Translations under genes and position numbers: made by a program | Origin: a virus | Strand: one strand, 5' to 3' | IMG/VR virus record: IMGVR_UViG_3300034524_000084 | Span: 1 to 64,000 of that record | Length of the DNA stretch: 64,000 nt | Part shown: positions 4,787 to 23,647 of the stretch, piece after piece | Numbering within the stretch: the stretch's first letter is position 1 | How the letters are laid out: each line of letters begins with the position of its first letter | Notes under the pieces: generated by a model | Told to the model about the DNA's origin: nothing | The model's database searches: none | Seen by the model: only the letters and a program-made list of their open reading frames with translations

Positions 4787-5571
4787 AAGGATTTGGGTTG
4801 TTGAATTGGAAAAAATGGAAGAAATAGGTTGTAAAATTTGAGGGTAATCGGATGGAAAATTAAGGTAGGTAGGTGAGATGATGAGCTTGGGCAATTCTTG
4901 GCATTTCTGGTTATCTTTTCCTTTGAAAATATGGCAGTATATAGGATATGAATAAAATTTCGATAAAATTTTTTGTGCTTTTGGTGGCATATAAATATAC
5001 TTATACACCACAATTGTGTATACAATTCATACAATTGCGTAAATTAATAAAAGTATATTAAAATTTGAATTTTATTATGGTAGATCGTGGTAAATTATGG
5101 GAATGTAAATTATAGTAAATTATATTGGTAAAAATTAGGATATTAATGTGTATTAAAAAAACGATACACTTTAATACCATAACACGACAAACTTCACAGA
5201 AGAGATTTAAAATTGTTATGGTTTGACCATAACAATTGTATTTATACAATCACAACAATTTTTAATAATTTATTTTAAACAATTGATTTTAAATTTATAC
5301 TCATTTCAATTTTGTACTCATTACAATTTTATAATTATTATTAACTAATAATTATTTTATTTATCATTTTATCGACAATAATTGTTATATTGCTTAAAAT
5401 CATATTTTTAATACTATTTTAAAAATATGTTCTATATGGAACATTTTAAATTGTATAAATTGTTTATACATTTATAAAAAAATTAAAAAATTCACCAAAA
5501 AAATCTATTGACATGATAAAATAATAATGATATAATTATAATAGAATCAATCAAAAAAAGGAGGAGTAAAA

Positions 5572-6528: not shown

Positions 6529-6733
6529 TTTTGCAATAAATCCTGCAAAAAATTTATAAAAAAAATTAAAAAATTCACCATTATATAACAGATAACAATT
6601 ATTATAACAGCAACACATTATTAATTAATAAAAAAATAAAAAGATTTTTTTAAAAAAACTATTGACATAATATAATAATAGTGCTAAAATATAATTAGCA
6701 AATCAAAAAAGTAATAAAAAGGAGGAACAAAAA

Positions 6734-6985
6734 ATGAATAGATTCGAATTGTCAAATTATGTAATTTCAAAAAATTATACAAAAGAGGAAATAAAAAACA
6801 TTTTGCAAAAGATTGATAAAAAAATAGAATTTTTACAAAAAAAGTTTAATAATAAATATGATAAAATTGAGATAGTTAATGCTATTATAAAAAATGAAAA
6901 AACTTTAATAATAAAAATGTTTTTCATTCTTTATCTTCAAAATCTTCTAAGTTTAAATTTTGAAGACTTAGAAGAAGTTATTTAA
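6734..6985 (+). CDS. Hypothetical early protein
   Basis: Promoter plus GGAGGA RBS. Confidence 0.7.
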   Translation: MNRFELSNYVISKNYTKEEIKNILQKIDKKIEFLQKKFNNKYDKIEIVNAIIKNEKTLIIKMFFILYLQNLLSLNFEDLEEVI

Positions 6986-7085
6986 ATAAAATCTCTATTT
7001 TAATAAAAAAAAATTCAAAAAAATGCTTGACTCTATAATAATGATGTATAATTAAAATAGAAAATCAATTAAAGGAGGAATAAAA

Positions 7086-7487
7086 ATGTTTTTAAATTAC
7101 AATTATAGAGCTTTTCCTTCTGAAAGAATGAAGGCAGTTTTTAAAATTTTTAACATCTTGGAAGGCTTAAATGAAATAAGTCAGAAATCAAAAGATTTTT
7201 CCAAAAATGCAAAATCTTTACTTGCTATAACAAGCGTACAAGCAAAGAAAGAAATAGACTCTATTATCAAGAGAGAGCACTTGATAATAGAGCTCTCTCA
7301 AATCACAGACAATCATAGTGGCGATGCTAAAGAGCATCGCTGGACTATATCGTCTCTGGAAGAGATGGCTTTTCAGAGGTGGTATAAGGATAGAGCTGGG
7401 AGTATCCCAGAGATTTCCATTACCGTCAAGGATAGAGACGGCAAGGAAATCTTTAGCATTAGTTATACGGAATGGGTAAAATTATAA
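7086..7487 (+). CDS. Hypothetical early protein
   Basis: AAGGAGG RBS; followed by GAGAGAGT/ACTCTCTC-U terminator. Confidence 0.75.
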   Translation: MFLNYNYRAFPSERMKAVFKIFNILEGLNEISQKSKDFSKNAKSLLAITSVQAKKEIDSIIKREHLIIELSQITDNHSGDAKEHRWTISSLEEMAFQRWYKDRAGSIPEISITVKDRDGKEIFSISYTEWVKL

Positions 7488-7632
7488 AAAAATATCCTCA
7501 AAAGAGAGAGTAGTAAACTCTCTCTTTTTTTATAACCAGCAAAAATTTTATATATTTTTTATAGAAAACACTTGACAAATATAAATGATGATGATATAAT
7601 TATAACAGAAACGAAAAAGGAGGAATAAAAAA

Positions 7633-8016
7633 ATGGTTAAATTGGATTATATTCATTTGCAAAAATTAGAAGGACTGGAAAGAGAGAGCATTGTCTACTC
7701 TTTCCAGGAGGTAAACAGTATTTTACAAAAATGGGCTATTGAAGATAGCCCAGATTTTGGATATGACAAGACAATTATAGAAATTTTTTATCAAGATGGA
7801 AATAAATTATCTTTTAGATTTGATTTAAGTAAAAAGCATAAGGGAGGAGTTAATATAACAGATTTCATTAAAAATGAATTAGAAATATATGCAGGCTTGA
7901 GGAAACCTTATTACATGACAGATGAGCAATATCAAGAATTTTTATCAATTTATATAACTGAAGAAGATAGACAAAAAGCAAAAGAAATTTTACAAAATTA
8001 TCAGTTAGAGGACTAA
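7633..8016 (+). CDS. LPD25-like (large polyvalent protein-associated domain) protein
   Basis: GYDKTxIxIxxxDG...RFDL pattern, recalled as typical of LPD25. Confidence 0.55.
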   Translation: MVKLDYIHLQKLEGLERESIVYSFQEVNSILQKWAIEDSPDFGYDKTIIEIFYQDGNKLSFRFDLSKKHKGGVNITDFIKNELEIYAGLRKPYYMTDEQYQEFLSIYITEEDRQKAKEILQNYQLED

Positions 8017-8302
8017 AAAGTCCTCTTTTTATTTTTTATTCATAACAGAAAATTATTATTATGTAATAAAATTTATTTTTTTAAAACTGCAAGATTAAGA
8101 AAAGATGTAATAGAATAAAAGGACTGATTTAGTCCTTTTATTTTTTATTTATAACAGAAAACTATTATTATTTAGCAATATATAACAGCTTGAATTATTC
8201 AGAATATTTAAAATATAAAAACTTCAATTTTGCTCTTGACATACAACAAAAATAGTGATACAATTATGATAGAATAAAAAAATTAAAGGAGGAATTTTTA
8301 AA

Positions 8303-8485
8303 ATGAAAACATATTTAGTTATTGAAACAGGAGTTTGTGATTCTCCATGGTGTCCAGGCTATCATTTTACAAGTGTTACTAAAGTTTTCAAAAATAAAGA
8401 AAAAGCCGAACAGTATTTGTTTGGCTTAAAAGAAAAAAATCCTCACTCACATTTTACAATTGAAGAAATAGAATTGCAGGATTAA
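8303..8485 (+). CDS. Small hypothetical protein
   Basis: Promoter, RBS and terminator; CDSPWC motif. Confidence 0.7.
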   Translation: MKTYLVIETGVCDSPWCPGYHFTSVTKVFKNKEKAEQYLFGLKEKNPHSHFTIEEIELQD

Positions 8486-8669
8486 AAAAATCCTGCTTTA
8501 TTTTTTTTGTTTTAAATTGTCTTATAATTCTAAAAAATAATAATATTTATTTATATAACAGCAAAATTATTAGAAAATTTAAAATATAAAAACTTTCGAT
8601 TTTCCTATTGACATATTTAAAAAATGATGATATAATTATAACAGAAACGAAAAAGGAGGAATAAAAAAA

Positions 8670-8819
8670 ATGAGCGAAAAAGAAAAAGAAAGAATACATC
8701 GAGAGATTCAAGAGCTTTCTTTAAAAATAAAGGAAGCTCTTGAGGAAAATGATGAAGACTATTATTATTATTTAATAGAAAAAAGAGAAATTTTATATTA
8801 TTTATTGGAGGAGGAATAA
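8670..8819 (+). CDS. Small acidic hypothetical protein (49 aa)
   Basis: Below the ORF-track cutoff; MSEKEKERIHREIQEL...LLEEE directly after a promoter and AGGAGG. Confidence 0.65.
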   Translation: MSEKEKERIHREIQELSLKIKEALEENDEDYYYYLIEKREILYYLLEEE

Positions 8820-8823
8820 AGAA

Positions 8824-9081
8824 ATGAAAGGAAAATTTTTTGTTGTCAGAGAATTTATACCCTTCAAGAAAGGGTATAAATTCCATGTTGTTGCGACTGA
8901 ACAGGCGAATAACATGCGCCATTGGAGTTATACTCATATGGCATCTTTTTATCGAAAAGAAGATGCCGAGGAGTATGCGGAGTTAATGACAGAAAAATAT
9001 AAAAATTATATGTCTCCTGCATTTTATATACAAGATGCAGAAGGTGGAGAGAGTGCTATCGGTTATTATTGTAAAGATTGA
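8824..9081 (+). CDS. Hypothetical early protein
   Basis: GGAGGAGG RBS; AGCGGTAT/ATACCGCT terminator. Confidence 0.75.
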   Translation: MKGKFFVVREFIPFKKGYKFHVVATEQANNMRHWSYTHMASFYRKEDAEEYAELMTEKYKNYMSPAFYIQDAEGGESAIGYYCKD

Positions 9082-9476
9082 GCGGTATTAAATACCGCTT
9101 ATTTTTTTATGTTTTTTTAAAAAATAATTATTATTAATAAAAAGTAAATTTTAATGCTATTAATTTCCATTCCACTATGGTTAGATTAAATTTATAACAG
9201 CAAGCACTTTATAGTTAACTATATAACAGTTAATCTTTAAATTATCAAAAAATGTAAACGATTGATTTTGAACTATAACAGCTTTACAAATTTAAGTCGA
9301 TGTTTATTATGTTTTATATTTTTATATATTTATATAAACATTTTATATAGGTAATTATTATTGTTAGAAAATTCTTAATATAAAAACTTCAATTTTTTTA
9401 ATAAAAATATATTGACAAGTAAGAGTAATAATGATATAATTATAACAGGACAAAAAAATAAAGAAGGAGGTATAAA

Positions 9477-9815
9477 ATGAAACGTTTAACTTCTTTTAAG
9501 CGCATAAAACCTTGTGACAGAAACAGGAACTATGAAGAAATAAAAAAGGTAACATCTGATAAGTTATACAAAAAAATGAAGGAATATTTTACAAAATACA
9601 CTTATGTGATACTAAATGAGTTTGAAAGAGCTAATCCTGACAAGATTCTGGAAGAATTTGCCATAGAAGAACTACCAGACATTAACATAAAGGAGGTGGC
9701 AGTTGGTTTAAGTGGAGGGGATTATAACATTTTATACATTCTGAAGAAAAGTATATCCCTAAAAGAATTTATGAAGTTTTATAAAATGTTACATGAGTCA
9801 CATTACAAGAAATAA
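9477..9815 (+). CDS. Hypothetical early protein
   Basis: Promoter plus AAGGAGGT RBS. Confidence 0.75.
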   Translation: MKRLTSFKRIKPCDRNRNYEEIKKVTSDKLYKKMKEYFTKYTYVILNEFERANPDKILEEFAIEELPDINIKEVAVGLSGGDYNILYILKKSISLKEFMKFYKMLHESHYKK

Positions 9816-9949
9816 AACAAGAGATTTTTTTAAATATAACAGCAAAATTATTAGAAAATTTAAAATATAAAAACTTTATTTTTTCTCTTGACAAATAAAC
9901 TTAATAATGATATAATTAAATTAGAAAATTTAAGGAGGAGGAATAAAAA

Positions 9950-10333
9950 ATGTTGACAGTTAAGGATATTTTAGATTGGGGAGAGTTAGATGTACAGGTA
10001 TTAGAAAATTGGCTAAATGTAGCTGAAAAATTTGGAATCACATTAGACGAAATAAAAGAAGAACTAGAGCATGAGGAAATGGACAAAACTGATATTAACA
10101 GCTGGTATTATATGACAATGTATTTGATAACAGAAGCAATAACAGATGAAATATTTGAAGTCGTAGATGGCGATGAAAGGATTATGGAAAAGGCTAACAA
10201 ATTAACATTTAATTTTGAACCTTACATTAATTGCATGGATTCTCATTTTAACAATATTCTTGATGAAGTAGATTTTACAAAAGACAAAGAAGAAATTGTC
10301 AATGAAGTTATTGAAAAATTAGAAAGAAATTAA
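9950..10333 (+). CDS. Highly acidic hypothetical protein (possible DNA mimic)
   Basis: D/E-rich 127 aa; own promoter. Confidence 0.75.
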   Translation: MLTVKDILDWGELDVQVLENWLNVAEKFGITLDEIKEELEHEEMDKTDINSWYYMTMYLITEAITDEIFEVVDGDERIMEKANKLTFNFEPYINCMDSHFNNILDEVDFTKDKEEIVNEVIEKLERN

Positions 10334-10508
10334 TTTTCATAACAGGGCAGGGCTTATGCCTTGTCCTGTTATAACAGAAGTTTTAGGGTACTTATAAAGG
10401 GTTAAAATAAACACGGAGGATTTGTATAACCTACTTGTTAAAATTCAAAATAATTGGGAATATATAACAGCACAAGATTAAAAAAATAAAAAAAGAGGAG
10501 GTTAAATT

Positions 10509-10820
10509 ATGTCAAGAAGGTTAACTTTTGAATACATAGCTGATAATAGATTTAAGAATTATTGGGGAGAAAATGGATTTGACTATTTGGAAAACTTAGA
10601 CAAAAAATTAAAAGAAGTATTATCAAAATATGATTGTTTACAATTAGAAGAAACAAATCCGAGAGTTATTCATTTTCCAGGAGATCCAAGTATTGGGGAG
10701 CCACCAAACGTGCAAATTAGAAAAAAGTATTATATAACAAAAATAGGAAGAAAATTAACATGGGATGATGTTTATGAGCTAATAAACAGTGTAAAAGCTC
10801 CAGTATATAAATTTATATAA
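10509..10820 (+). CDS. Hypothetical protein
   Basis: GAGGAGG RBS. Confidence 0.72.
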   Translation: MSRRLTFEYIADNRFKNYWGENGFDYLENLDKKLKEVLSKYDCLQLEETNPRVIHFPGDPSIGEPPNVQIRKKYYITKIGRKLTWDDVYELINSVKAPVYKFI

Positions 10821-11000
10821 ATTAAAAAAGGGAGGGTTTAAAATGTCTTTGAAAACTTACACAAGAAAAAGCAAGGATTTAATAGTAAGAATGGGAATAA
10901 ATAACGTAACAAAAAAGAAAAACTACAAAAAATTTTATAACAGATATAACAGAAGGAAAACGAGAGAAGAAATAAAAAATATAATGAAGGAGGTATTAGT

Positions 11001-11351
11001 ATGATAACTATAAAAGAAATAAAAACTAACGAATATCCCACAAGGTATGTAGCTTTCAAAAATCCCACCTATTTTGTGGAAAATATTAGTCCACAAAATA
11101 GAGGAGGATATGAATTTGCAGTTTATTATGAGCCTTACCAAAATAAGGAATATCCACATATAACAGATGGTATATATATCGAAATAGTGTCTTATCAAGG
11201 CAAAAAAATTTTATTGGATTGTCATTTAACAATACCTAACAAAAATAGGCAACAGAAAGGTTTTACAAAGCTATATAACAGCTATAAAGAAGCCAAACAA
11301 GAGGCTTTTAAGTGGCTTGAAGAAGCGCATAAATTTTTACAAGAAGTTTAA
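11001..11351 (+). CDS. Hypothetical protein
   Basis: AAGGAGGT RBS. Confidence 0.72.
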   Translation: MITIKEIKTNEYPTRYVAFKNPTYFVENISPQNRGGYEFAVYYEPYQNKEYPHITDGIYIEIVSYQGKKILLDCHLTIPNKNRQQKGFTKLYNSYKEAKQEAFKWLEEAHKFLQEV

Positions 11352-11431
11352 TAGATTTTTTAAAAAACACTTGACAAATGATAAAGATAATGATATAATT
11401 AAATTAGAAATTAAAAAAGGAGGAATTAAAA

Positions 11432-11947
11432 ATGGTAAAAGTAAGAATTCCAGGTTATAACAGACAGGAAGGCTACAGAGTCTTTGAGGTTTTAGATAGG
11501 GATGAGGTAGAAAAAATTTTGGACGAATTAGACCCCACAGACATTTGGGATATGACTTATGATGAAGGTGATGGTTATAGTTTTTCAGGAACGGCTTATA
11601 CTTACTTGGATGCAAGGGATGGGACATTACATACTGCTTGGTTACAGCAAAATACGACAGAACACCCATGGGATTCATTTTACAAAATTATCCTCTGTAG
11701 TATGGAAACAGGGGATAATTGGTGGGATTTTATGACACCAGATGAGCTATTAGACTGGGACGAACAAAGAGAGTTTTTAGATTATGATGGTACACTTGAA
11801 GAGTTTATTATGGAAAAGTATGGAGAAGAAGAATTGCAAAACAGAATAGAGAATGCAAAGGATTATTGGGCTTATGAGTTTAATTTTGATTGGGACTATA
11901 TAAAAGAACAGTTAGATTATCTTTACAGCTTTATTATAGAGGACTGA
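11432..11947 (+). CDS. Highly acidic hypothetical protein (possible DNA mimic or anti-defence protein)
   Basis: 171 aa, rich in D/E/W/Y; own promoter and terminator. Confidence 0.78.
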   Translation: MVKVRIPGYNRQEGYRVFEVLDRDEVEKILDELDPTDIWDMTYDEGDGYSFSGTAYTYLDARDGTLHTAWLQQNTTEHPWDSFYKIILCSMETGDNWWDFMTPDELLDWDEQREFLDYDGTLEEFIMEKYGEEELQNRIENAKDYWAYEFNFDWDYIKEQLDYLYSFIIED

Positions 11948-12107
11948 AAAGTCCTCTATTTTATTCATAACAGCAGATATATTTTAATTGCATAAATTAT
12001 TTAAACATTTTTAATTTAAAGACTTTAATTTTATTCTTGACAAATAAAATTAATAATGCTATAATTAGTATAGAATAAAAAACAAATTATTAAGGAGGAG
12101 ATTAAAA

Positions 12108-12304
12108 ATGTTAACAAAAAACAAAAAGAATTATTAATACAATTGGCTAATCTTATAGCTGAAATTCAGAATGAAATAGACGTGCAATATGAACAATATA
12201 ATGACATAAAATTTGCGGCAACTATAGAATACATTTTTAATAACAGCGATGATTTTTTAGTTATGCATAAAGTTATTGAAAGGATATTAAGAGAGGAGGA
12301 ATAA
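12108..12304 (+). pseudogene. Small gene frameshifted in an A6 tract
   Basis: Promoter, RBS and ATG; one extra A at 12116-12121 would give MLTKKQKELLIQLANL...ILREEE. Confidence 0.55.
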
Positions 12305-12308
12305 TGAA

Positions 12309-12509
12309 ATGGATAAAGAAATTATCAAAGCTTTTGAGGAATTTAAAAATTCAAGTATTAGTTTTGCCGAAGTAATTTTAAAGCACAATTTAGATAGAGA
12401 GAATAATTTTTGGGAAAACTATCCATTTAATAAAGATTTTGCAGAAATTGTAGATGATATAATTGATTGGTATAATACCATTTTTAACGAAAAGGAGGAG
12501 ATAAAATGA
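12309..12509 (+). CDS. Small acidic hypothetical protein
   Basis: GAGGAGG RBS; YPFNKDF motif. Confidence 0.7.
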   Translation: MDKEIIKAFEEFKNSSISFAEVILKHNLDRENNFWENYPFNKDFAEIVDDIIDWYNTIFNEKEEIK

Positions 12510-12619
12510 AAATTTTAAGTGTGTTAGGTGAATTATTTACTTTGATTTTAGGAATGTTTACAATTTATTTGTGGGTATGTATTTTAGCAGTTACATTAAA
12601 ATAATAAGGAGGTATTGGT

Positions 12620-13486
12620 ATGAAAATAACATTATATACTAATTATTTAGCTATTTCGGGAATAGACATAAAATATACTTTCGATTTAGATACATTAGAA
12701 GGGACAAAAGAATTTGTAGACTATCAGGAAGGAATAGTAAAAACCGATATTATAACAGAAAAAGACAAGGAAATAATCAAAGCTGAATTGGATAATATAG
12801 AATTTCAACACAAAATCCAAGAAGCAAAAGAGATGAATAAAAAGAGTATAAAATTATCATTTTATAAATCTCCTGAAAAACATTTTGAAGAAAAATTAGA
12901 AGGGGCTAAAGAAAAATTGAAAAAAGACCTGTTTAACATGGTTGCAGAAATTGAAAGGGAAGTCCAATATCCATTTCAGTATAATAATTTAATAATTATT
13001 AGAGATAAAATTAATAATAATAAATTTTTTAAAGACCATATAACAGTTGAGCAATTACAGTTATTAGAAAACAAAATAAAACAAGCTAAAAAGATTAAGG
13101 AAGAGTATGAATATAAACACGAGATTATATTTAGTGTTAAACAAGATAATAATAACAGTATATTTTGTTATATGGATAGTAGCGGTTATTATTATCTTGT
13201 AACACAAAGACAGTATAAAACTAAAGCTATAACAGAATTATTTAGACAATTACTTACACAAGAAGGTTATATAATAACAGACAATGAATTAACATTGCTT
13301 GATTATTATATATATAGAGAGACAAAGAAAAATATTGAAATAACAAGGATTGAATTAGAAAGAATGAGACAAGGCAAACAAATGCCATATATTATATATC
13401 AAGAAATAGGAGACAGAATGTTAAAGAAGATTTTTGACCCGTTATTGATAAACGAAAATTATAATGATATAATAACAGTAAATTAA
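12620..13486 (+). CDS. Hypothetical protein
   Basis: 288-aa ORF with RBS. Confidence 0.78.
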   Translation: MKITLYTNYLAISGIDIKYTFDLDTLEGTKEFVDYQEGIVKTDIITEKDKEIIKAELDNIEFQHKIQEAKEMNKKSIKLSFYKSPEKHFEEKLEGAKEKLKKDLFNMVAEIEREVQYPFQYNNLIIIRDKINNNKFFKDHITVEQLQLLENKIKQAKKIKEEYEYKHEIIFSVKQDNNNSIFCYMDSSGYYYLVTQRQYKTKAITELFRQLLTQEGYIITDNELTLLDYYIYRETKKNIEITRIELERMRQGKQMPYIIYQEIGDRMLKKIFDPLLINENYNDIITVN

Positions 13487-13493
13487 ATTTAAA

Positions 13494-13940
13494 ATGGAGG
13501 GGATTATTGTGGATAAAGATATTATTGAGTTATGGGAAAAGAATAAACACAAGCTAAGAGAATATTTTGCTACTCATGAACAAAGCCTTTATCCTGATTA
13601 CGAAAGTTTGGTTAAGTTAATTGTAAAATTTATACTTAATGATGAGGGTAGTCTTGAAGAATATGACGCAGACAATATAACAGTTATTACTAATGGGGAT
13701 TATCAAGGAATACTTATATTTATTATCCCTAAAGATATGTATTATCCTACAGAGGAAGACTTTTTGGTAACATATGTATATTATGGTAGTTGTGAAGCGT
13801 GTGATGTATTAAAAGGTATAAGATATGCTTATTATGATGATGCTTATTATGATGATGATAGTGTACCTAATCAAGAACAAATTGAAGATTATATGACTTT
13901 ATGTTTGCATATTATTCAACATATGAAAAAATTGTATTAA
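13494..13940 (+). CDS. Conserved-looking acidic phage protein
   Basis: GDYQG...YGSCxxCD motif; true start probably GTG at ~13509. Confidence 0.75.
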   Translation: MEGIIVDKDIIELWEKNKHKLREYFATHEQSLYPDYESLVKLIVKFILNDEGSLEEYDADNITVITNGDYQGILIFIIPKDMYYPTEEDFLVTYVYYGSCEACDVLKGIRYAYYDDAYYDDDSVPNQEQIEDYMTLCLHIIQHMKKLY

Positions 13941-14111
13941 GGAGGGATATTATGAATTTACAAGAATTAGAAAAAGAATTAAAAATTTGGGAGGATTATT
14001 TTAAAAAATCCTCCCAGTATTTGAAACCTGATGAGATAAGATATAGTTACAATTTCATGCAATATAACAAAATAAAAGAAATGATACAAAAACTTAAAGG
14101 AGAGGAAAACA

Positions 14112-14471
14112 ATGGAGCATAATAGTATAACAGCAAAAATGGTAGAGACTTTCCTGAAAAAGACATATAACAGAATTAAAAAGGATGCTTTGTATGTTAT
14201 GCAATATTATTCGCAATATCCAACACTTATAAATGATTATTACAAGTTATTGGGTATGTATTCTGACAGATTGTGGAATTTACATAGTTGGGTGAAGAAG
14301 GTTGACAATACCGCAAAGTTACAAGAGCTTTTAAGGTCTTACGATAGAGAATATAAAATATTTAAAAATATGGAAAAAGATGAGTTTTTATATAGTGATT
14401 TAGCTGACTGGTATGAAGATATTATTATTGGTTTAGAAAAAATTATGCAAAATTTTTCTAAAGAGTATTGA
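14112..14471 (+). CDS. Hypothetical protein
   Basis: GGAGAGG RBS. Confidence 0.7.
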   Translation: MEHNSITAKMVETFLKKTYNRIKKDALYVMQYYSQYPTLINDYYKLLGMYSDRLWNLHSWVKKVDNTAKLQELLRSYDREYKIFKNMEKDEFLYSDLADWYEDIIIGLEKIMQNFSKEY

Positions 14472-14715
14472 CATTATAAGAATAACGATTTATAATAATG
14501 CAAAAGGAGGAGATATTATGACTATAACAGCTTTCAATAAGTTTATGCAAGATTTAAAAAATTTTGTTAATAAAATGAATGAAAATAATATACCTAAAAA
14601 TGAGCAAAAAATTTTGTTAAAGCACTATATAACAATATATAACATTCAACATAACAGTAAAATAAATTTAAATAAAAATAATATTGATTTATTAGTAGGA
14701 TAAGGAGGATTAGTT

Positions 14716-14973
14716 ATGGAGGAATTAAAAAACTTGATTAATATGTTTAATAGCATATTAGACCAATTAATAGAATTACAAGAAATACAAAGAAAGATAA
14801 ATGAGGCTATAAGCTTTGAAAGTGAATTTGATGATAATGGGTATGAAATAGTTAAAGCTTTAGTGATAGATAAAAATAAAATAGAAAAACTTGTAAAAAT
14901 ACACATGACTTTTAGTGAAGATTATGAATATTTAGAAGATAAGATTAAAGAAATGCCAGTAATTTGGAGATAA
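14716..14973 (+). CDS. Hypothetical protein
   Basis: AAGGAGG RBS. Confidence 0.7.
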   Translation: MEELKNLINMFNSILDQLIELQEIQRKINEAISFESEFDDNGYEIVKALVIDKNKIEKLVKIHMTFSEDYEYLEDKIKEMPVIWR

Positions 14974-14985
14974 GGAGGAGATAAT

Positions 14986-16116
14986 ATGAGATTTAAAGTA
15001 AATAAAATAGAGTTAGAAAAAGCTTTAAATGTTGTTAAGGAGGGATTAGGAAAAACATATCCTATTTTGAAAAATGTACTTATAACAGTGGATAATGGAA
15101 AGATAATAAAATTTACTGCATTTAACTTAAAAGAAATGGTGAGTTATACCATTATTTCTAATATTTCTAAAGATTTAGAAGATGGAGCAGTTGTGGTTGA
15201 TTTAAAAGAGTTGTTAGATATAGTAAAAACTTTGCCTAATATAGAATTAGAAGCATTTATAGAAGATAACAGATTTATAATACAATATAATGATTCTCAA
15301 ATACAGATAGCTATTAATTTAAGTCCTGAAGAATATCCAATGAGCATTCATGTTGTTGATATAGATAATACATTTGATATAACAGTAGAAAATTTACAGA
15401 GTGCTATAGACAAAGTAATATTTGCAGTGGATAAGGCAGGAAAGTATACATCAAGACCAGTATTACAAGGTGTTTTATTTGATATAACAGATGATACGAT
15501 AAATATAGTGGGTTCAGACGGGTATAGGATGGCATTATATCAAACAAAAATAAATTGTAATATTGGGATAGATACCCAATTAGTTATACCTGCTAAATTA
15601 TTAGAAAAAATTTATAAAGTTATAAAGTTAACTAAATATAAAGGAGATATAGAGGTTTATTATAACAGCAAAAATATATCATTCTATACGGAAGAATTTG
15701 AGGTGAGCGGTTATTTGGTGGATGGAAAATATTTTGACTATAAGGCAGTATTGCCAAAAGAGTTTAATACTAAGCTAATAGTTAATAAAAAAGATTTTGA
15801 AAGTATGCTCAAAAGAATGAAGGCTATACCTTCAACAAAAGAAATGCCAATGGCAAAAATTATAACAGACAATAATAAAATTTACATACATTCCCACAAT
15901 GGAACTATGAGTTTAATTGAAAATATGCCAGCTAAAATAACAGGTGATAAAGTGGAGATAGCTTTTAGGGTGGCTTATATTCTTGATTATTTAAAGAAAG
16001 TTGGTACTAAAGAGGTGGTAATAAATATTGTGAATTCAAATTCACCAGTTATTTTAGAGGAAACTAATGACAATGAAAAATATCAATATTTAGTTATGCC
16101 AGTAGCTTTAAATTAA
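14986..16116 (+). CDS. dnaN: DNA polymerase III beta sliding clamp
   Basis: 376 aa; YPILKNVLI, RPVLQGVLF, GSDGYRMA, GKYFDYKAVLP, C-terminal YLVMPV. Confidence 0.93.
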   Translation: MRFKVNKIELEKALNVVKEGLGKTYPILKNVLITVDNGKIIKFTAFNLKEMVSYTIISNISKDLEDGAVVVDLKELLDIVKTLPNIELEAFIEDNRFIIQYNDSQIQIAINLSPEEYPMSIHVVDIDNTFDITVENLQSAIDKVIFAVDKAGKYTSRPVLQGVLFDITDDTINIVGSDGYRMALYQTKINCNIGIDTQLVIPAKLLEKIYKVIKLTKYKGDIEVYYNSKNISFYTEEFEVSGYLVDGKYFDYKAVLPKEFNTKLIVNKKDFESMLKRMKAIPSTKEMPMAKIITDNNKIYIHSHNGTMSLIENMPAKITGDKVEIAFRVAYILDYLKKVGTKEVVINIVNSNSPVILEETNDNEKYQYLVMPVALN

Positions 16117-16209
16117 CATAATACATATAACAGCAAAGGAGGTATGGTTATGAGTCCATGAAATATAAATAATAATAACAAATGAATGGCAATTTAAGGG
16201 GGACAACGA

Positions 16210-17334
16210 ATGTCAAATGAAATTGATATATTGAACAATGTTAAAAAACCGTTATTTTTACCCAATACACAATTGATGACTATAAAGATGGTTGCAGATT
16301 ATTATGAGGTTGATACTAAAACAATTGATAAAATTATAAATCGTCATTTTGATGAATTAACAGAAGATGGATATGAGGTTTATTCAAGGGCAGAATTAAT
16401 AAATCTTTGGATTCAAAAAAATGCCAATTTTAAAAATTTAAAAGGTAAAACAGTAGTTACTATTAACAATCAAAATATTATTATACCCAATAGAGGTTTA
16501 AGGCTTTTTACAGCACGAGCTTTATTACATATAGGTATTTTATTAAGGGATAGTATAATAGCCGAAAAAGTAAGACAAGAAATAATAAAATCAGGGAATT
16601 TAAAATTAATTAAGATGTTAGAAGATAATAATCCTAATATACATAAAAAACAGATGACACTTTATGAAATATTATTAAGTGTATATAAAGATATTTGTGT
16701 GATAGAGAAAGAAAGAAAAATTGGTGCTTATAGAGTGGATTATTTAATTAATAATAAAATTGTTATTGAATGTGATGAATTAGGACATAAAGATAGAAAT
16801 AAAAAATATGAAAAAGAAAGAGAAGCATATTTAAAATCGTTAGGATATATAGTAATTAGGTTTAATCCTGATGATAGTAATGCTAATGTTTTTGAATTGT
16901 TAAATAAAATTAATAAATATCTTTATGGAGGTGAATATTTGGTGTTATATAATATTTTGGAAAAAGTAAAAACACCAAAATTTATAAAAGGAACAAAATT
17001 AATGAATATTAAAATGTTGGCAGATTATTATAAAGTAAGTGTGGAAGACATACAAAAAATAATTAAAAATAATGATGAATTCAGTTATATAATAGATATT
17101 TCAGACAAGAAAAATATTTTATTTTCAGAAAAAGATATTTTAAAAATGGCAATGTTTTTAGATGGAGATGTGGCAATGAAAGTTAGAAATAAGATATTAG
17201 ATATATATGAGGCATCTAATAATCAAACAATAACAAAAGAAGACAGATTATTATTAAATATTATATATTCTGATACAGAAGAAAGCAAATTAAAAGCATT
17301 AAGAGAATATAAAAAATATAAAAATATGATATAA
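16210..17334 (+). CDS. DUF559/Vsr-like endonuclease flanked by duplicated DNA-binding-like domains
   Basis: YRVDYL...IECDELGH...ERE.YL...G..VIRF core; IKMVADYYEV and IKMLADYYKV repeats. Confidence 0.7.
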   Translation: MSNEIDILNNVKKPLFLPNTQLMTIKMVADYYEVDTKTIDKIINRHFDELTEDGYEVYSRAELINLWIQKNANFKNLKGKTVVTINNQNIIIPNRGLRLFTARALLHIGILLRDSIIAEKVRQEIIKSGNLKLIKMLEDNNPNIHKKQMTLYEILLSVYKDICVIEKERKIGAYRVDYLINNKIVIECDELGHKDRNKKYEKEREAYLKSLGYIVIRFNPDDSNANVFELLNKINKYLYGGEYLVLYNILEKVKTPKFIKGTKLMNIKMLADYYKVSVEDIQKIIKNNDEFSYIIDISDKKNILFSEKDILKMAMFLDGDVAMKVRNKILDIYEASNNQTITKEDRLLLNIIYSDTEESKLKALREYKKYKNMI

Positions 17335-17381
17335 ATTTTGAAAAATTGAAATAACAAATTGATATCAAGGAGGTAAAATGT

Positions 17382-18161
17382 ATGGAGGATGAAATTAAAT
17401 TAGAGTTAGTTAAAAGCGAAGAGTTTTTAGGTGTTAAGTGTGATTTTTATAGAGACCAAGATAATAATATATATATGACAAGGGAGCAAATTGGGCAAGC
17501 ATTACAGTATAGTAATCCTCTTATTTCGATAAGCAATATACATAATAGAAATAAAGAAAGATTAGATAAATTTTCAGTGGTAATCAAATTGATTAGTACT
17601 GATGGAAAACAATATGATACTACTTTATATACAGAACGTGGTATTTATGAAATATGCAGATTATCAAAACAGCCAATTGCAAATGATTTTTATGATTGGG
17701 TGTACGACCAAATAACATTAATTAGAAAGGCAGGGGGAGTAATTAATGATAAAGAGCTTTTTATTGAAACTTATTTTGGGGCATTAGATGAAGCCAGGAA
17801 AGAACTTGTGAGAGGTTTTATGACCCAAATTGAAGAACAACAGAAACGTATATTGGAAATGCAACCAAAAGTTGATAAATGGACAGCTTATATGGACAGC
17901 AAGGATAATATAACAGTTGAAAAGTTTGCAAAAGCACTTAACATTCCAAACATTGGGAGAAATAAAATGTTTGACATTTTAAGAAAACATAAGATTTTGA
18001 GAGATAACAATATGCCATATCAAGATTATATTAACAGAGGTTATTTTGATGTAATAATAAATGTTGTAAATGGTTTTAATGTAACACAAACACTTATAAC
18101 ACCAAAAGGGGCTGAGTGGTTGTACGACAAGCTCAAAGAATGGGGTTACATAACAGCTTAA
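17382..18161 (+). CDS. Phage antirepressor (BRO-N plus KilAC/ANT)
   Basis: MTREQIGQALQY...LYTERGIYEI; C-terminal QPKV...IGRNKMFDILR...PYQDYI.RGYF...TLITPKG. Confidence 0.88.
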   Translation: MEDEIKLELVKSEEFLGVKCDFYRDQDNNIYMTREQIGQALQYSNPLISISNIHNRNKERLDKFSVVIKLISTDGKQYDTTLYTERGIYEICRLSKQPIANDFYDWVYDQITLIRKAGGVINDKELFIETYFGALDEARKELVRGFMTQIEEQQKRILEMQPKVDKWTAYMDSKDNITVEKFAKALNIPNIGRNKMFDILRKHKILRDNNMPYQDYINRGYFDVIINVVNGFNVTQTLITPKGAEWLYDKLKEWGYITA

Positions 18162-18416
18162 TTTTAAGGGTTTTGCGGTTTTCCCATAAAAACCGCATTT
18201 TATAAAAAATATTGACAAATACAAATTATGATGATATAATATAACAGGAGGTGTTTAAATGGGCGATATAAAGGAATTCAAAGGACGTATAGATGTTAAA
18301 TATATTGAAGAAATTATTAATAATTTATCAGAGGAAGAAATTCTAAAACTTTTAAGCTTGCCAGATGAAGAAATTATGGAATTATTAGATGTTGATGATG
18401 AGGAGGGTGATGATAA

Positions 18417-18944
18417 ATGAGAGAATATTATGTTAGCACTAAAGAAGTTGAAGGCAAAAAGTTTTATTATATGGATTTTGGGTATGAAACTCACGGAAGA
18501 ACAAGTTTTAGGTTGTGGGTTTCTTCAAAATTAATAAAAACAGATGATAATAATAGAGAATATATAGAATTCCCTATAACAGCAAAGATAGTAGAGACCG
18601 AAAAAGGAACTACAATTTTGAAACCACTACAAGAAGGTGAACAATATTATGTATTTGACTTATATCAACCATGTGGTTATCGAGGTAGTGCTTATATAAC
18701 AGTGTTAGAACCAGAGCCTTTAAATGTTAAAGTTTACAGGTACTACCATTCACCATTAGGAAATTTAGGAGAAGATTATGGTATGTTAATTATGGTAAAT
18801 TCTGATAAGGTAAAAATTAAATGGGAAAGAACAGGACGTACTTACGGAGCACCCAAAGAAGGATACAGAGTGTATTATGCCGATGGGAAAACGGAAGAAA
18901 TAGAACATATTGATTTAGAGGATTTGGAAGAGATAGAAAGTTAA
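18417..18944 (+). CDS. Hypothetical protein
   Basis: 175-aa ORF with RBS and downstream terminator. Confidence 0.75.
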   Translation: MREYYVSTKEVEGKKFYYMDFGYETHGRTSFRLWVSSKLIKTDDNNREYIEFPITAKIVETEKGTTILKPLQEGEQYYVFDLYQPCGYRGSAYITVLEPEPLNVKVYRYYHSPLGNLGEDYGMLIMVNSDKVKIKWERTGRTYGAPKEGYRVYYADGKTEEIEHIDLEDLEEIES

Positions 18945-19069
18945 AGTGAGAGGGTATTTTACCCTCTCACAAAATAATAATAAAAACATTCCTCCTCTAG
19001 TGTATAAAATACATAAGAATTGAATATAATAATAACAGAAGATAAAAATATGAGGAGGAGGTGTGTGTC

Positions 19070-19408
19070 ATGAAAAGGGGTGAGATATGGTTAGCTAATT
19101 TAGGGAAAAGAGAGGGGTCTATACAAAGTGGTATAAGACCCGTAATAATAGTGAGTAATGATAAAAATAATGAACATAGCCCTACTGTTAATGTAATACC
19201 AATTACAAGTAATATTAATAAAAACAATTTACCAGTGCATGTATATATTGGGATTGAATGTGGATTATTAAAACCTTCTGTTGCGCTGGTAGAGCAAGAC
19301 ACAACAATAGATAAAACAATGTTAATTAAAAAAATAGGACAATGTACATATCAAACTATGGAAAAAATTAATCGGGCTATTTTGATACAAAAGGGATTAA
19401 TAGCATAA
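19070..19408 (+). CDS. mazF: PemK/MazF family endoribonuclease
   Basis: KRGEIWLANL...SIQSGIRPVIIVSND..N..SPTV.VIPITS...HV; start taken at ATG 19070. Confidence 0.9.
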   Translation: MKRGEIWLANLGKREGSIQSGIRPVIIVSNDKNNEHSPTVNVIPITSNINKNNLPVHVYIGIECGLLKPSVALVEQDTTIDKTMLIKKIGQCTYQTMEKINRAILIQKGLIA

Positions 19409-19432
19409 TAACAGTTAGGGGGGAATGAAAAT

Positions 19433-19708
19433 ATGAATTTTGTTGTATTAATAGAAGTTGAAAAAGAAGCAAAAATTAAAGATTTAGATAAAATTATTAA
19501 TATCCTCAATAAAAAAAATAATATAAAAGGTGATATATATTGTCAAATAGATAATAAACATATTATTAAATGCTATATTTATCCAGAACAGAAATATAAA
19601 ATAAGCGATATTGAAAAAATGTTAAATAATTATAATACTAAGGTTGAGGAAATAAAGATAATAAAAACAAAGAGGGGTGAAATAAATGATGATGACAATG
19701 AAGAATGA
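19433..19708 (+). CDS. Hypothetical protein
   Basis: RBS; in operon. Confidence 0.6.
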   Translation: MNFVVLIEVEKEAKIKDLDKIINILNKKNNIKGDIYCQIDNKHIIKCYIYPEQKYKISDIEKMLNNYNTKVEEIKIIKTKRGEINDDDNEE

Positions 19709-20036
19709 TATAGAGGAGGAAGTAATTAAGCTTGCCGAGCAATATGGATATAATGTTAGAATTTTGTATGATAATTCTTTATTGATAACATCTAAATATT
19801 CTGAATGGTATGTTATTAATAAGAGAAATTATTTTTTACTAAGACATTATAGTAGTAATAGTAAAAAAATAAGATTTCACATACAAAAAAATAGAGGTAA
19901 TCAAAAATTGAAATTTGATAATTTATATAAGGTGTTTAAATATATATATAATCATGATAGGGCAGATATAATAAAGAAGAACAGAGTACCTTATCGTATT
20001 GAAAGATTATTTTATTTAATAGAAAAAGCAAAATAA
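19686..20036 (+). CDS. Hypothetical protein
   Basis: RBS; in operon. Confidence 0.65.
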   Translation: MMMTMKNDIEEEVIKLAEQYGYNVRILYDNSLLITSKYSEWYVINKRNYFLLRHYSSNSKKIRFHIQKNRGNQKLKFDNLYKVFKYIYNHDRADIIKKNRVPYRIERLFYLIEKAK

Positions 20037-20095
20037 AAATGTTGACAAATACATATATTATTAATATAATATAGGTAAGAAAGGAGGAAAATAAA

Positions 20096-21409
20096 ATGAA
20101 AGTTGAACCACGAGAGTTGTATAATAGTCTTAATGCTATGATAAAAATGTATGGCAAAAATAATAAAGTTTTAGAGGAAGTAACAAATTTATTGATAAAA
20201 AAAGGTATTCCGAGGGGATATGCCAAAAAGATATTAATGGGTATTACACCAGTTGAGATATTAGATAGAGCAATATTATATGTTGTTACCTCAGCATTTT
20301 ACCAGGTTACCAATGAATCAATTGTAAATACCGAAAAATACTTTACTGACGAAGAGATTAAAGAGGGAGAAAAATTCCGATATATAACAGAGAAAAAGGA
20401 AAGTTTTCCAGTTATTTTTGAAGATGTGCTCAAAGTTAGTGATGATTATTATATAACAACATTAACAGCGCAAAAAATAAAAGAATTGTATGATGGCTTT
20501 GTGGTGACATATAACAAAGAAACGCAACGCAATACAATTGCGAGAAGAATTCGCAACAGTGTAATAGAAATGATTAACGTAAATTGGAAATCAGTTAAAG
20601 AAATAGAAGAAGAAATATTAAAAGGATTGTTTATAACAAATGCTATAACATTCAATATACTTAAAAACGGGGAAGAAGAATTTGAATATGATGAAAAAAA
20701 TAGAACTCTAACAGTATATAAAGGTGAAATTGATATATTAGATGGTTTTCATAGAAGTTTAGGTATGATTAATGCAGTATCAGTAAATCCTGAAGTGCAA
20801 TATATAACAGCAGTTAATATAACAAATTTTGATATTGAAAAAGCAAGAAGGTTTATTGTGCAAGAAGATAAGAAAAATAAGATTGCTAAAAAACACATTG
20901 AAGCTTATAAAGAAACATTAGAAAATGCTATTGTACGCAAGATTAATGAGAGTCCTAATTGTGATTTAAAAGGGAAAATAACAACTAATGGTAGGTTAAT
21001 ACAATTCAATCAAGCTCTTGTGGAGTTTGAGGTATTGACTCAAGCTATAAAATATCATTTTGATATAAAAACACAAAGAGAAGCTAACCAAATAGCCGAT
21101 TATCTTATAGAGGGGTTTAACGAAATAATTGGCTTATATCCAGATGAATTTTTGGATAATTACGCTAAGGTTAAACAAAGAAGTACAATAAATCATAATT
21201 ATACTTTTATTGGTTATGTAGCATTGTTGGCAAAATTGAGAGAAAACCCACAATGGAAAGAAAAATTGAGAAAGACTTTAGAAAAAATAGATTTTTCTAT
21301 AAAGAATCCCGATTGGGAGGCAATAGGATTATTCAATGGTAGATTAACTATTAAGGTGATTGAAAGTATCAGTAAATATTTTATAGATAAAATAGTAAAG
21401 GAGGGATAA
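20096..21409 (+). CDS. DGQHR/DndB-like (ParB/Srx fold) protein, SPbeta YopQ-like
   Basis: YNKETQR...ITFNI...IDILDGFHRS motif; directly upstream of an integrase-like gene, as in SPbeta. Confidence 0.7.
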   Translation: MKVEPRELYNSLNAMIKMYGKNNKVLEEVTNLLIKKGIPRGYAKKILMGITPVEILDRAILYVVTSAFYQVTNESIVNTEKYFTDEEIKEGEKFRYITEKKESFPVIFEDVLKVSDDYYITTLTAQKIKELYDGFVVTYNKETQRNTIARRIRNSVIEMINVNWKSVKEIEEEILKGLFITNAITFNILKNGEEEFEYDEKNRTLTVYKGEIDILDGFHRSLGMINAVSVNPEVQYITAVNITNFDIEKARRFIVQEDKKNKIAKKHIEAYKETLENAIVRKINESPNCDLKGKITTNGRLIQFNQALVEFEVLTQAIKYHFDIKTQREANQIADYLIEGFNEIIGLYPDEFLDNYAKVKQRSTINHNYTFIGYVALLAKLRENPQWKEKLRKTLEKIDFSIKNPDWEAIGLFNGRLTIKVIESISKYFIDKIVKEG

Positions 21410-21410
21410 T

Positions 21411-22358
21411 ATGGAATTATATAACCAAGAATTAAAAGAGAGATTTTTAGAACAATATTCAGAATCAACAAGATTAACGTATAGAAATATTTTTAAAAAG
21501 ACAGCACCAAAGGAGAATGAATTACAAAAAGATTTATATCAATTTAATTTAGAAGAATTAGATGACTTATTGTATTCGCTTGGCAGTACTTCTGCGCAGT
21601 ATATAGCAACTGTTTTAGCGGTATTGTCAAAATATGTTGATTTTTGCATACAAGAAGGATATATAGGTAATCCAGCGGGAATTAATTATGTAAGGTTAAT
21701 TAATCCTACTTTAGAAAATTTAAAAAAATATGAACATGGAATCGACAAAAAATATAGGTATATTGATAGAGAAGAATTACAACAAATAATTAATATGTGT
21801 GTAAATGCTCAAGATGCAGTTATATTTGCATTGTTATTTGAGGGAGTAATGGGGGAAAATTTAGAGGAATTAATTAATCTAAGAGTAGATGATTGTAATT
21901 TTATGGATAATATTCTTACTTTAAGGCGTAACGATGGGACAAAAAGGAGAATATCAGTACAACAAGATACTATGAAACTTATTAATAAAGCAATTAATCA
22001 AGTTGAATATTATAGAGTATCGGACATAGCTAATGGAGTGTTCTTATTACAAAGGACACCTTATGTGTTGAGACCTATAGTAAGCGAGAAAGTTCCAACT
22101 GAAAAAGTAAGTCATCAAATAATCAGGAATAGATTAAAAAAAATAGCAGAAATGTATGGAAATCCATACCTAAATCCTAAAAATATTTTTAGGAGTGGTA
22201 TGATAGATTATATAAGAAGATATATGAAGAAATATGATATAAAATCTTTCAAAGATTTAAAGTATAGCGATATGGCAAACATTTTACGGAGATTTGGAAT
22301 AGAGGCTACGACACAAAATGTTTATTTATATCGTACCAGATTGAGGGAATATGTTTAG
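21411..22358 (+). CDS. Tyrosine-recombinase-fold regulator, SPbeta YopR/MrpR-like
   Basis: YNQELKERFL...E..LQKDLYQFN...NAQDAVIFALLFEG...EELINL...NIFRSGMI; canonical R and HxxR catalytic motifs absent. Confidence 0.75.
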   Translation: MELYNQELKERFLEQYSESTRLTYRNIFKKTAPKENELQKDLYQFNLEELDDLLYSLGSTSAQYIATVLAVLSKYVDFCIQEGYIGNPAGINYVRLINPTLENLKKYEHGIDKKYRYIDREELQQIINMCVNAQDAVIFALLFEGVMGENLEELINLRVDDCNFMDNILTLRRNDGTKRRISVQQDTMKLINKAINQVEYYRVSDIANGVFLLQRTPYVLRPIVSEKVPTEKVSHQIIRNRLKKIAEMYGNPYLNPKNIFRSGMIDYIRRYMKKYDIKSFKDLKYSDMANILRRFGIEATTQNVYLYRTRLREYV

Positions 22359-22391: not shown

Positions 22392-23024
22392 CTATTTTTT
22401 AGGTTTTTTAAATACACCCATATAAACACCGTTAATAATTATATCGTTAGCAGGGTGTACGATATCAGAATAAGCAGGGTTAGAAGAACGCAGGATAACC
22501 ATATCAGAATTTTCAGGATGATATAAATGTTTTAAACAAGTTTCATTCCCATCAATTATAACAGTAACTATTTGTCCATTGTAATCCACATAATTTTGTA
22601 CTCTTATAAGCACAACATCACCATCTTCTATGCCATCTCCTATCATGCTATTGCCTTCTGCTCTTAAAAGAAAATGTTCGTACCCGACACTCAACATTTC
22701 TTTTGGAAATGGCATATATCCTTGTAGATGCTCTTCGGCAAATAGGGGTTGTCCTGCACGAATATTACCTAAAATAGGTAATATAACCATTTCTACTTCT
22801 TTAACATTTGAAAAGTTGGGTGTTTCATTTTCAAAAAAATATTGTATTGGTACATTTAAAATTTTAGCAATTTTTTGTAATATATTTACATTTGGTTTTA
22901 TTGTATTGTTTTCGTATTTATTCAGTGTAGAATGAGATATGCCCAAAAGTTGCGCTAATTGTTTTTGATTTAAACCTTTATTCATACGTGCTTTTCTAAT
23001 TTTTTTACCAAGAGTCATTTTCAA
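22392..23024 (-). CDS. cI/LexA-like repressor (XRE HTH plus S24 peptidase)
   Basis: N-terminal HTH, AG cleavage site (IRAGQP), GNSM serine, CLK lysine. Confidence 0.92.
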   Translation of the reverse strand: MKMTLGKKIRKARMNKGLNQKQLAQLLGISHSTLNKYENNTIKPNVNILQKIAKILNVPIQYFFENETPNFSNVKEVEMVILPILGNIRAGQPLFAEEHLQGYMPFPKEMLSVGYEHFLLRAEGNSMIGDGIEDGDVVLIRVQNYVDYNGQIVTVIIDGNETCLKHLYHPENSDMVILRSSNPAYSDIVHPANDIIINGVYMGVFKKPKK

Positions 23025-23086
23025 AACTCCTTTCTATTTTAATAATATTATTATAATCAATTTCAAAAAAATATGCAAATTTTTTA

Positions 23087-23115
23087 TTGACATTTCTTAA
23101 TAAGAAATGTATAAT
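23087..23115 (+). promoter_or_regulatory. Promoter with a palindromic operator between -35 and -10
   Basis: TTGACA-N17-TATAAT overlapped by ACATTTCTTA-A-TAAGAAATGT (23090-23110); divergent from the repressor gene. Confidence 0.8.
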
Positions 23116-23180
23116 AAAATTAAATTGTAATAATTTATTTTTAATCATAAAATATAAAAAATATAAATGGAGGTATGTAA

Positions 23181-23579: not shown

Positions 23580-23647
23580 ATTAAAAAGATAAATAGAGGG
23601 AAAACGAGGGAAGGGTATAAAAACAAAAATAGGAGGTTGATATTATT

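Follow-up and report, generated by a model that had tools for sequence, protein, structure and literature searches.

A strand-polarised heptamer, ATAACAG, crowded into one early block of an SPbeta-like phage genome and purged in the same orientation outside it

The window analysed here spans positions 1 to 64,000 of a 97,780-bp contig from a temperate phage (IMG/VR record IMGVR_UViG_3300034524_000084, hereafter G000), the termini of which overlap by 127 bp, indicating a circular assembly. It carries a heptamer, ATAACAG, that is crowded on the plus strand of a single block of rapidly changing early cassette genes and is purged in this orientation from the remainder of both oppositely transcribed arms. 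ATAACAG (core ATAACA, with T preferred before it) is a selected cis-acting word, and we found no described phage with such a two-sided signature, i.e. a dense block combined with a genome-wide, orientation-specific purge, which points to a one-directional DNA signal of a previously undescribed kind. The facts of its distribution are solid; the mechanism proposed below is a ranked guess. Few short, polar words are known to be read by machines that track along DNA (Chi, KOPS, cosQ), and every one of them gave rise to a field; in the present case, selection was strong enough to rewrite protein sequences, and the word was kept across phages with almost no early genes in common.

Distribution and exactness of the ATAACAG word

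Exact ATAACAG is found 64 times in the window (60 copies on the plus and 4 on the minus strand), and the whole genome contains 60 plus-strand and 8 minus-strand copies. They are arranged as follows:

6585..20810, plus strand: dense block, 54 plus copies and 1 minus copy (strand ratio 54:1)
22558..32183, plus strand: thin tail, 6 further plus copies versus ~2 expected
10366, within 10339..10377, minus strand: the sole minus-strand copy of the block, hairpin stem partner of the plus copy at 10339, 3' of the gene 9950-10333

No plus-strand copy is present in 1-6584, nor beyond 32183 through the rest of the 97,780 bp. The initial annotation, made by eye, had reported about 50 plus-strand copies in the early region, seven of them inside dnaN (14986-16116), about six more up to 32.2 kb and none elsewhere, all of which agrees with the exact counts (the last copy starts at 32177). 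Its rough estimate from base composition was only a few copies; Markov simulations trained on the 14.5-kb block predicted 2.7 (order 1), 4.6 (order 2) and 12.5 +/- 3.2 copies (order 3, maximum 20 in 200 simulations), while dinucleotide shuffles of the whole window gave 13.4 +/- 3.4 copies on both strands together.

Of the 54 block copies, 32 fall within coding sequence and the remaining 22 between genes, where they are ~3 times denser. The 32 in-gene copies compare with 10.8 +/- 2.5 under synonymous-codon shuffling (maximum 19 of 1000) and with 2.4 +/- 1.5 under codon permutation. The enrichment survives the codon-aware and Markov backgrounds alike and is not uniform along the genome; its loss against such backgrounds, or its uniformity, would have undone the original observation. 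The copies are read as I-T-x (23 cases) or x-N-S/R (9 cases), the third frame containing a TAA stop. Of 26 I-T-[VADEG] tripeptides, 23 are spelled with ATAACAG, and the tripeptide itself is also in excess; therefore, selection must have shaped both the codons and the residues.

The word is sharply delimited. T precedes it in 39 of the 54 block sites and G seldom follows it, flank information outside these 8 bp amounts to at most 0.14 bit per position, and one-mismatch variants occur near background in the block. The spacing of copies is about as random placement predicts. ATAACAG is thus short, exact and of a single orientation, as are words of the Chi type.

A minority of copies is placed at promoters, all on the plus strand:

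7572..7608, plus strand: consensus extended -10 promoter, ATAACAG 1 nt past the -10 element, over the expected start site
8608-8644 and 9412-9448, plus strand: promoters of the same layout, ATAACAG 1 nt past the -10 element
18212-18247, plus strand: similar promoter, ATAACAG directly past the -10 element
13445-13478, plus strand: similar promoter, ATAACAG overlapping the -10 element
19004-19038, plus strand: similar promoter with ATAACAG

Only 5 of the 16 consensus promoters of the block bear the word, the other 10-11 strong promoters having ATAATAG-like words in its stead, and some ATAACAG copies are located directly 3' of terminator T-tracts. We rejected a role for ATAACAG as the -10 element recognised by a phage sigma factor, as transcripts would begin within ribosome-binding sites. 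As a separate observation, 11 promoters in 5508-20070 are perfect TTGACA-17-TATAAT elements, mostly with an extended -10, that have common upstream blocks and an ATAAYAG-like start region; a promoter cassette has therefore been copied repeatedly.

The same heptamer, with the same polarity and map position, recurs in no fewer than four further SPbeta-like phages, where it forms a block of 12-17 kb; the blocks of this size hold 30-54 copies each, always on the strand of the early genes. The related sequences are:

G001a, 195 kb: block of 49 copies in 17 kb
G005 (= G001b), 154 kb: block of 30 copies in 12.5 kb
G006, 139 kb: block of 43 copies in 17 kb
G002, 68.8-kb fragment: block of 14 copies in 11 kb
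L073 and L074, partial contigs of close relatives: 34-35 copies within 10 kb before mrpR

Inverted ATAACAG pairs similar to that at 10339/10366 are also present in the blocks of G005 and G001a. The only near-block genes common to G000 and G001a, G005 and G006 encode YopQ-, MrpR- and LexA-like proteins (31-42% identity), and the cassette genes within the blocks are unrelated between G000 and these three genomes. G002 has the block, yet shares only structural and packaging genes with G000. The occurrence of one word across phages with unrelated cassettes is expected if a conserved reader, perhaps the host's, sets it.

L073 and L074 are 80-88% identical to G000 at the DNA level. In these relatives, 23 of 31 and 31 of 35 G000 sites are intact, compared to 32% and 57% of all aligned 7-mers (P 2e-6 and 6e-5), and hence the sites are under purifying selection. 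The losses are mostly C to T changes that yield ATAATAG, and promoter copies have been exchanged in this way; close relatives have lost copies of the tail (22558..32183) more often than any others. The codon tests, the conservation of sites and the persistence of the word amid unrelated genes together uphold the earlier proposal of a polar code that does not act at the protein level, and the recommended search for an analogous polar word in related phages returned the very same heptamer.

Other searches delimit this distribution. SPbeta has no comparable dense polar k-mer, and the unrelated 42.7-kb phage G007 shows neither block nor purge. A megablast search of the block against GenBank phages gave no match, DnaN used as a probe for relatives found none, and a scan with a promoter-plus-word 17-mer returned mostly chance matches but recovered G002. 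No prophage was found when genome collections were scanned with MrpR-like proteins, or when 40 genomes of the class and 401 of the phylum surrounding the candidate host were searched. An MrpR tree lacked resolution on whether the word-bearing phages form one clade. Other words enriched at distant MrpR loci (TGACGCA, CAGATAT, TTAAAGA, GGTTCGA) turned out to be codon-level or tRNA-derived and were discarded as analogues.

Three side observations concern these sequences. G001 (IMGVR_UViG_3300024999_000029, 349 kb) consists of two different SPbeta-like genomes placed head to tail in the same orientation, its first 154 kb corresponding to contig G005; this could represent tandem prophages or an assembly chimera. 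At L039-L041 and L082, the loci of remoter MrpR homologues, the mrpR strand shows a 4-8-fold depletion of ATAACA, with no ATAACAG block within the 6-10 kb of upstream flank examined; a block may sit beyond this flank, or the purge may extend outside the clade. Finally, GATC, GGCC, CCGG and CATG are strongly depleted in G000, G005, G006, G001a and G002 (in the early arms, GGCC 3 versus 147 and CCGG 0 versus 78), a palindrome depletion typical of classic restriction avoidance that may help to identify the host.

Orientation-specific purge outside the block

For this analysis, the genomes were oriented with the block word on the plus strand and counts were pooled over G000, G005 and G006, with G002 added for the structural arm. 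The early-arm figure of G000 covers 33-57 kb, 21-33 kb with the six-copy tail having been left out; G005 and G006 are fairly close kin, and the pooled counts are partly non-independent:

Rest of the early arm (block orientation = sense): block orientation 0 versus 12-21 expected, opposite orientation 10 versus 7-9
Structural arm (block orientation = antisense): block orientation 1 versus 11-15 expected, opposite orientation 22 versus 27-30

The empirical rank of the block-orientation counts is within the lowest 0.1-0.3% among k-mers of like expectation. In codon-aware shuffles, the opposite orientation was unremarkable, and the block orientation was found once versus 7.4 (synonymous) or 14.4 (permuted) in structural genes and not at all versus 11.0 (synonymous) or 12.4 (permuted) in early-arm genes. 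The independent genome G001a has 2 versus 8-13 and 0 versus 4-6 copies in the block orientation, the opposite orientation being low too; in four of the five genomes the latter is near expectation. The hexamer ATAACA gives larger numbers: in the block orientation it counts 48 versus 123-148 and 34 versus 122-195 on the two arms, on both of which it is the most depleted non-homopolymer hexamer, while in the opposite orientation it is depleted only 0.6-0.8-fold. Its polarity does not flip along any genome examined.

Because the purge follows absolute orientation on arms that are transcribed in opposite directions, we infer a DNA-level signal, read by something that travels one way along the chromosome. 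This argues against an RNA target as well as against transcription-oriented stoperators, and of the "DNA or RNA" binding code suggested in the initial annotation it favors the DNA half at the expense of the RNA half.

One orientation of an asymmetric word missing genome-wide regardless of context is also known from T7 and EcoP15I, where all Type III sites lie on one strand. However, escape from Type III restriction needs all copies to point one way, whereas here the block and the opposite copies coexist and the genome would stay cleavable, and the strong local excess of ATAACAG would be left unexplained; this explanation was rejected.

Candidate readers of the word

We rank first, as a guess to which we assign a probability of about 0.3, a Chi-like array next to pac that is read by an end-loading helicase-nuclease. 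In SPbeta-like phages, the divergence zone between yonP and yonR contains pac (the genome opening point), and DNA is packaged unidirectionally by a headful mechanism (PMC8270828; 10.1101/2021.11.22.469490). Since the block of G000 begins just right of the equivalent zone, by synteny it would adjoin pac, at the end of the packaged unit and beside the DNA ends that arise from packaging and injection. We speculate that an enzyme of the AddAB/RecBCD class would degrade inward from a free end, recognise the exact word from one side only, and upon recognition switch from destruction to RecA loading. With 30-50 copies, the stop would be near-certain even at 10-20% recognition per copy. As a result, pac with the adjoining genome unit, or the entering end, would be shielded, and recombinational circularisation would be favored. 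Whether ATAACAG or CTGTTAT is the strand read, and which end is protected, would depend on the packaging direction.

Chi words are GCTGGTGG in E. coli, AGCGG in B. subtilis, GAAGCGG in S. aureus and GCGCGTG in L. lactis. Like them, ATAACAG is a short exact word with one active orientation, and the Chi effect rises with copy number, the orientation in which Chi acts in phage being linked to the origin of packaging. An exact, short, polar word with mismatch variants near background is the behavior of Chi rather than that of an operator, and the Chi-like array is also consistent with the high copy number, the random-like spacing, the presence of both genic and intergenic sites, the selection that altered codons and amino acids, the freedom from the word of a recent insertion (16210-17334), the conservation of sites in relatives, the recurrence of word and layout amid unrelated cassettes, and the purge by absolute orientation. 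SPbeta itself provides a parallel. AGCGG, reportedly identified as the B. subtilis Chi by Chedin et al. 1998, occurs in SPbeta (NC_001884, 45000-94999) 24 times on the plus strand (13 expected) and only twice on the minus strand (10.8 expected), across both oppositely transcribed arms; therefore, a helicase-nuclease signal can mark this phage family likewise. We have not met the absolute strand polarity of Chi in a prophage (SPbeta) in earlier descriptions.

Several points weigh against a Chi-like array. Known Chi words are G-rich and spread over the genome, with a genome-wide enrichment that is also seen for the favored Chi orientation in SPbeta, whereas ATAACAG is AT-rich, confined to one 12-17 kb block at ~1 copy per 270-400 bp, and purged elsewhere; the Chi model alone gives no reason why same-orientation copies elsewhere should be harmful. 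ATAACAG occurs at 0.8-1.55 times a control word, i.e. with no Chi-like excess, in 13 Thermoanaerobacter-like genomes of the only candidate host family, to which an 87% identical TnpB is the sole pointer. With the packaging direction reported for SPbeta, protection of the entering end would require the pyrimidine-rich CTGTTAT to be read, which would be unusual for a Firmicute. Additionally, the G005 block stops sharply ~4 kb before yopQ and looks bound to a module rather than to a distance, and no enzyme has been linked to ATAACAG. If the word is a Chi, it would be the first AT-rich one and would show which Chi an uncultured lineage of anaerobes uses.

A signal for packaging or ejection, read by the translocating machinery of the phage itself (terminase and portal, or the ejection channel), is in our opinion a less probable alternative, although it explains the distribution best, accounting for all facts at once. 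In the last-packaged, first-injected segment, the word would serve as a brake or would announce the coming end of the unit, and readable copies elsewhere would slow or abort translocation and hence be purged. This agrees with the sharp block edge on the presumed pac side, with the absence of the same orientation along the entire path on both arms while the opposite orientation is invisible to the machine, and with the independence from gene content: G002, which has the block, has only structural and packaging genes in common with G000, and both block and purge are lacking in the unrelated G007. Termination in lambda is signalled by the 7-bp polar cosQ. Like ATAACAG, cosQ and the KOPS/SRS words of FtsK/SpoIIIE are polar and 7-8 bp long; they are read by a one-way DNA translocase, and the wrong orientation of KOPS/SRS is counter-selected. 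However, cosQ is present as a single copy beside cosN, and KOPS/SRS extend over whole replichores and are mirrored at origin and terminus, whereas ATAACAG forms a single block with no mirror image across the divergence zone. Moreover, a multi-copy array of this sort is without precedent, headful cutting is held to be sequence-independent, and a motor leaving pac in the other direction would encounter all copies first. The more specific formulation, a polarity code of virion DNA in which the heptamer is read only by the phage's own translocation machinery, from one side only, so as to slow or end movement, is just as tentative; if true, this would be the first case of a headful phage controlling DNA movement through a sequence code. 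The initial annotation had listed a signal on the first-injected DNA among its options, and this one fits the geometry transferred by synteny from SPbeta (pac in the divergence zone, headful packaging).

It is similarly doubtful, in our view, that the block is a silencer array, in which a phage protein (the YopQ-like protein, some other conserved factor, or the MrpR-like protein recognising a short core together with AT-rich shape) would silence or insulate toxic early cassettes in the lysogen, much like SPBRE boxes or mycobacteriophage stoperators on an enlarged scale. The yopQ/mrpR pair is invariably found immediately downstream of the block, and the block edges in G005 are sharp and module-like. 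The family comprises monomeric repressors on asymmetric sites (PMC10516654; 10.1101/2025.11.27.690993): MrpR-type SPBRE, which we rederived, are 15-bp elements at about ten SPbeta promoters (PMC10516654), and the SroF box of phi3T spans 26 bp, of which 24 bp are read by a clamp-like monomer (10.1101/2025.11.27.690993). The likeness extends to the phage family, to a homologous repressor gene by the block, and to the position of SPBRE between the -10 element and the ribosome-binding site in the orientation of transcription, which five promoter-proximal ATAACAG copies share. In contrast to these boxes, which are read nearly end to end and placed at the promoters of repressed operons, ATAACAG has flanks without information and lies mostly away from promoters, 11 of the 16 consensus promoters lacking the word and promoter copies becoming ATAATAG in relatives. 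Furthermore, SPbeta has no such array, and the identical heptamer accompanies MrpR-like proteins that are only 37-41% identical and that the MrpR tree does not unite. Repressor-box pairs are phage-specific in Bacillus phages, with which the constancy of the heptamer contrasts. Operators of the MrpR/YopR-like repressor, the first option of the initial annotation, are thus unsupported in the form proposed there. Nevertheless, a short core plus AT-rich DNA shape might suffice for MrpR-like binding, and the operator reading keeps some weight because the mrpR-like gene is always syntenic with the block.

The stoperators of Cluster A mycobacteriophages, bound by L5 gp71 and by the TipsytheTRex repressor, are a precedent for oriented repressor sites across a phage genome: they are many asymmetric sites for a monomeric repressor, at promoters and elsewhere, in strict orientation (13 bp, 20-36 per genome, mostly intergenic; PMC9283540). 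Unlike ATAACAG, which has 7-8 bp, lies mostly in genes and in one block, and is purged by absolute rather than transcription-relative orientation, stoperators follow transcription on both arms; on the structural arm studied here it is the antisense orientation that is purged.

A polar barrier to replication forks or translocases, at which a bound protein would halt the replisome from one side as in Tus-Ter, so that the block would be a terminus by pac and the presumed origin zone, seems improbable to us. An orientation-specific purge with a single dense block fits the logic of copies forbidden along the path of the fork, the divergence zone has iteron-like repeats, and DnaB, DnaG, Pol III alpha and DnaN are all phage-encoded. 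Such a barrier is without phage precedent and requires unidirectional replication, and no barrier protein has been identified.

Least probable of all, and very unlikely, is an RNA-level signal on early transcripts, i.e. a site cleaved by the MazF-like protein or by an RNase of the host, or one targeted by a small-RNA seed, that would time or silence early messages. ATAACAG, which includes ACA, is on the sense strand of every gene in the block, its exactness is as expected for a seed match, a MazF-like gene is found in the lysogeny operon, and MazF activity steers lysogeny in phi3T (PMC10769878). A motif read on RNA would be tied to the transcribed strand; instead, the structural arm purges antisense copies and keeps sense copies at expectation. 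In addition, promoter-proximal copies overlap the expected transcription start and would be incompletely transcribed, other copies come right after terminator T-tracts, and the phage MazF-like gene is missing from G001 and G005. Two further links to RNA were dropped: that to the AACAGCA "handle" of Ro60-region RNAs is based on a single copy, and as to complementarity with a tRNA-Asn-like anticodon loop, CTGTTAT is absent from the Ro60 RNA region and a true loop needs TTAACAG, which is rare. An integron-like cassette recombination site was likewise rejected, as most copies (32 of 54) are genic and the boundaries of the block do not convincingly fall at the word.

Whichever reader applies, the block carries candidate anti-defence and host-takeover genes beside the likely packaging origin, and the word probably bears on the survival of entering or replicating phage DNA against host nucleases, or on the timing of DNA movement.

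Genome layout and genes around the block

The architecture of G000 is SPbeta-like. The structural arm is on the minus strand (58-98 kb), and the plus-strand arm opens with ~15 kb of small single-gene cassettes with 16 near-consensus sigma-A promoters and many terminators. These are followed by a MazF-like gene, two small genes, a YopQ-like and an MrpR/YopR-like gene and then, on the opposite strand, a LexA-like repressor gene, beyond which are the DnaB, DnaG and Pol III alpha replication genes, ribonucleotide reductase (RNR), RtcB and an integrase. The block begins immediately right of the divergence zone and lies between it and the yopQ/mrpR lysogeny module. The principal features are:

1586..2647, plus strand: tyrosine-recombinase-like gene at the block head, HxxK replacing HxxR
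2650..5500, no strand assigned: divergence zone where the gene arms part, AT-rich and almost without open reading frames (ORFs), with tandem palindromic 38-bp units, direct repeats and dyads
14986..16116, plus strand: phage dnaN (sliding clamp), seven ATAACAG copies in two reading frames
16210..17334, plus strand: DUF559/ORF6N/helix-turn-helix (HTH) endonuclease-like gene, zero ATAACAG, missing from relative L073
19061..19408, plus strand: MazF/PemK-like gene, considered as an RNA-level reader
20096..21409, plus strand: YopQ-like gene, DndB/ParB-type fold
21411..22358, plus strand: MrpR/YopR/SroF-like recombinase-fold repressor gene (Pfam MrpR_N_CB 3.5e-25, MrpR_C_cat 2.1e-11)
22392..23024, minus strand: LexA/CI-like HTH + S24 peptidase repressor gene that closes the lysogeny module, the rightward replication genes starting past it

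The product of 21411-22358 possesses the CB and degenerate CAT domains and the recombinase fold of the MrpR/YopR/SroF group, and matches PDB 8a0a, 8bj6 and 9rd5 at E 1e-22 to 1e-24. In all complete relatives, the YopQ-like gene keeps its synteny with the block (36-42% identity), and the MazF/PemK-like gene, missing from G001 and G005, is at another location in G006. The endonuclease-like gene 16210-17334, located between dnaN and an antirepressor gene, is probably a recent, mobile insertion into the block, because it is absent from L073 and free of ATAACAG.

In the divergence zone (3672-3765 and 3079-5074), tandem 38-bp units with a TATACTAGATTTCTAGTATA palindrome and four copies of TAAAAGTATATTAAAAAGC are present; both are candidate origin or pac elements. 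The dyad AATCGG-N6-CCGATT of this zone is not conserved in relatives. The recombinase-like gene at the block head is syntenic in G005 (78950-80029) and G006 (88257-89351), with 35% identity, and in all three phages it adjoins the repeat-rich divergence zone. Its product could be a cyclisation/resolution enzyme or a second degenerate recombinase; it was dropped as a universal reader of the word, as no homologue was found in G002.

On the structural arm, two short ORFs upstream of the portal gene (L105 3590-7076; genome 87.6-91.1 kb) are possible pieces of a terminase, one of which matches a single 422-aa ORF next to the portal gene of G002. LAGLIDADG and other endonuclease ORFs lie between the two pieces, and the large terminase may accordingly be split by intron-like or homing elements.

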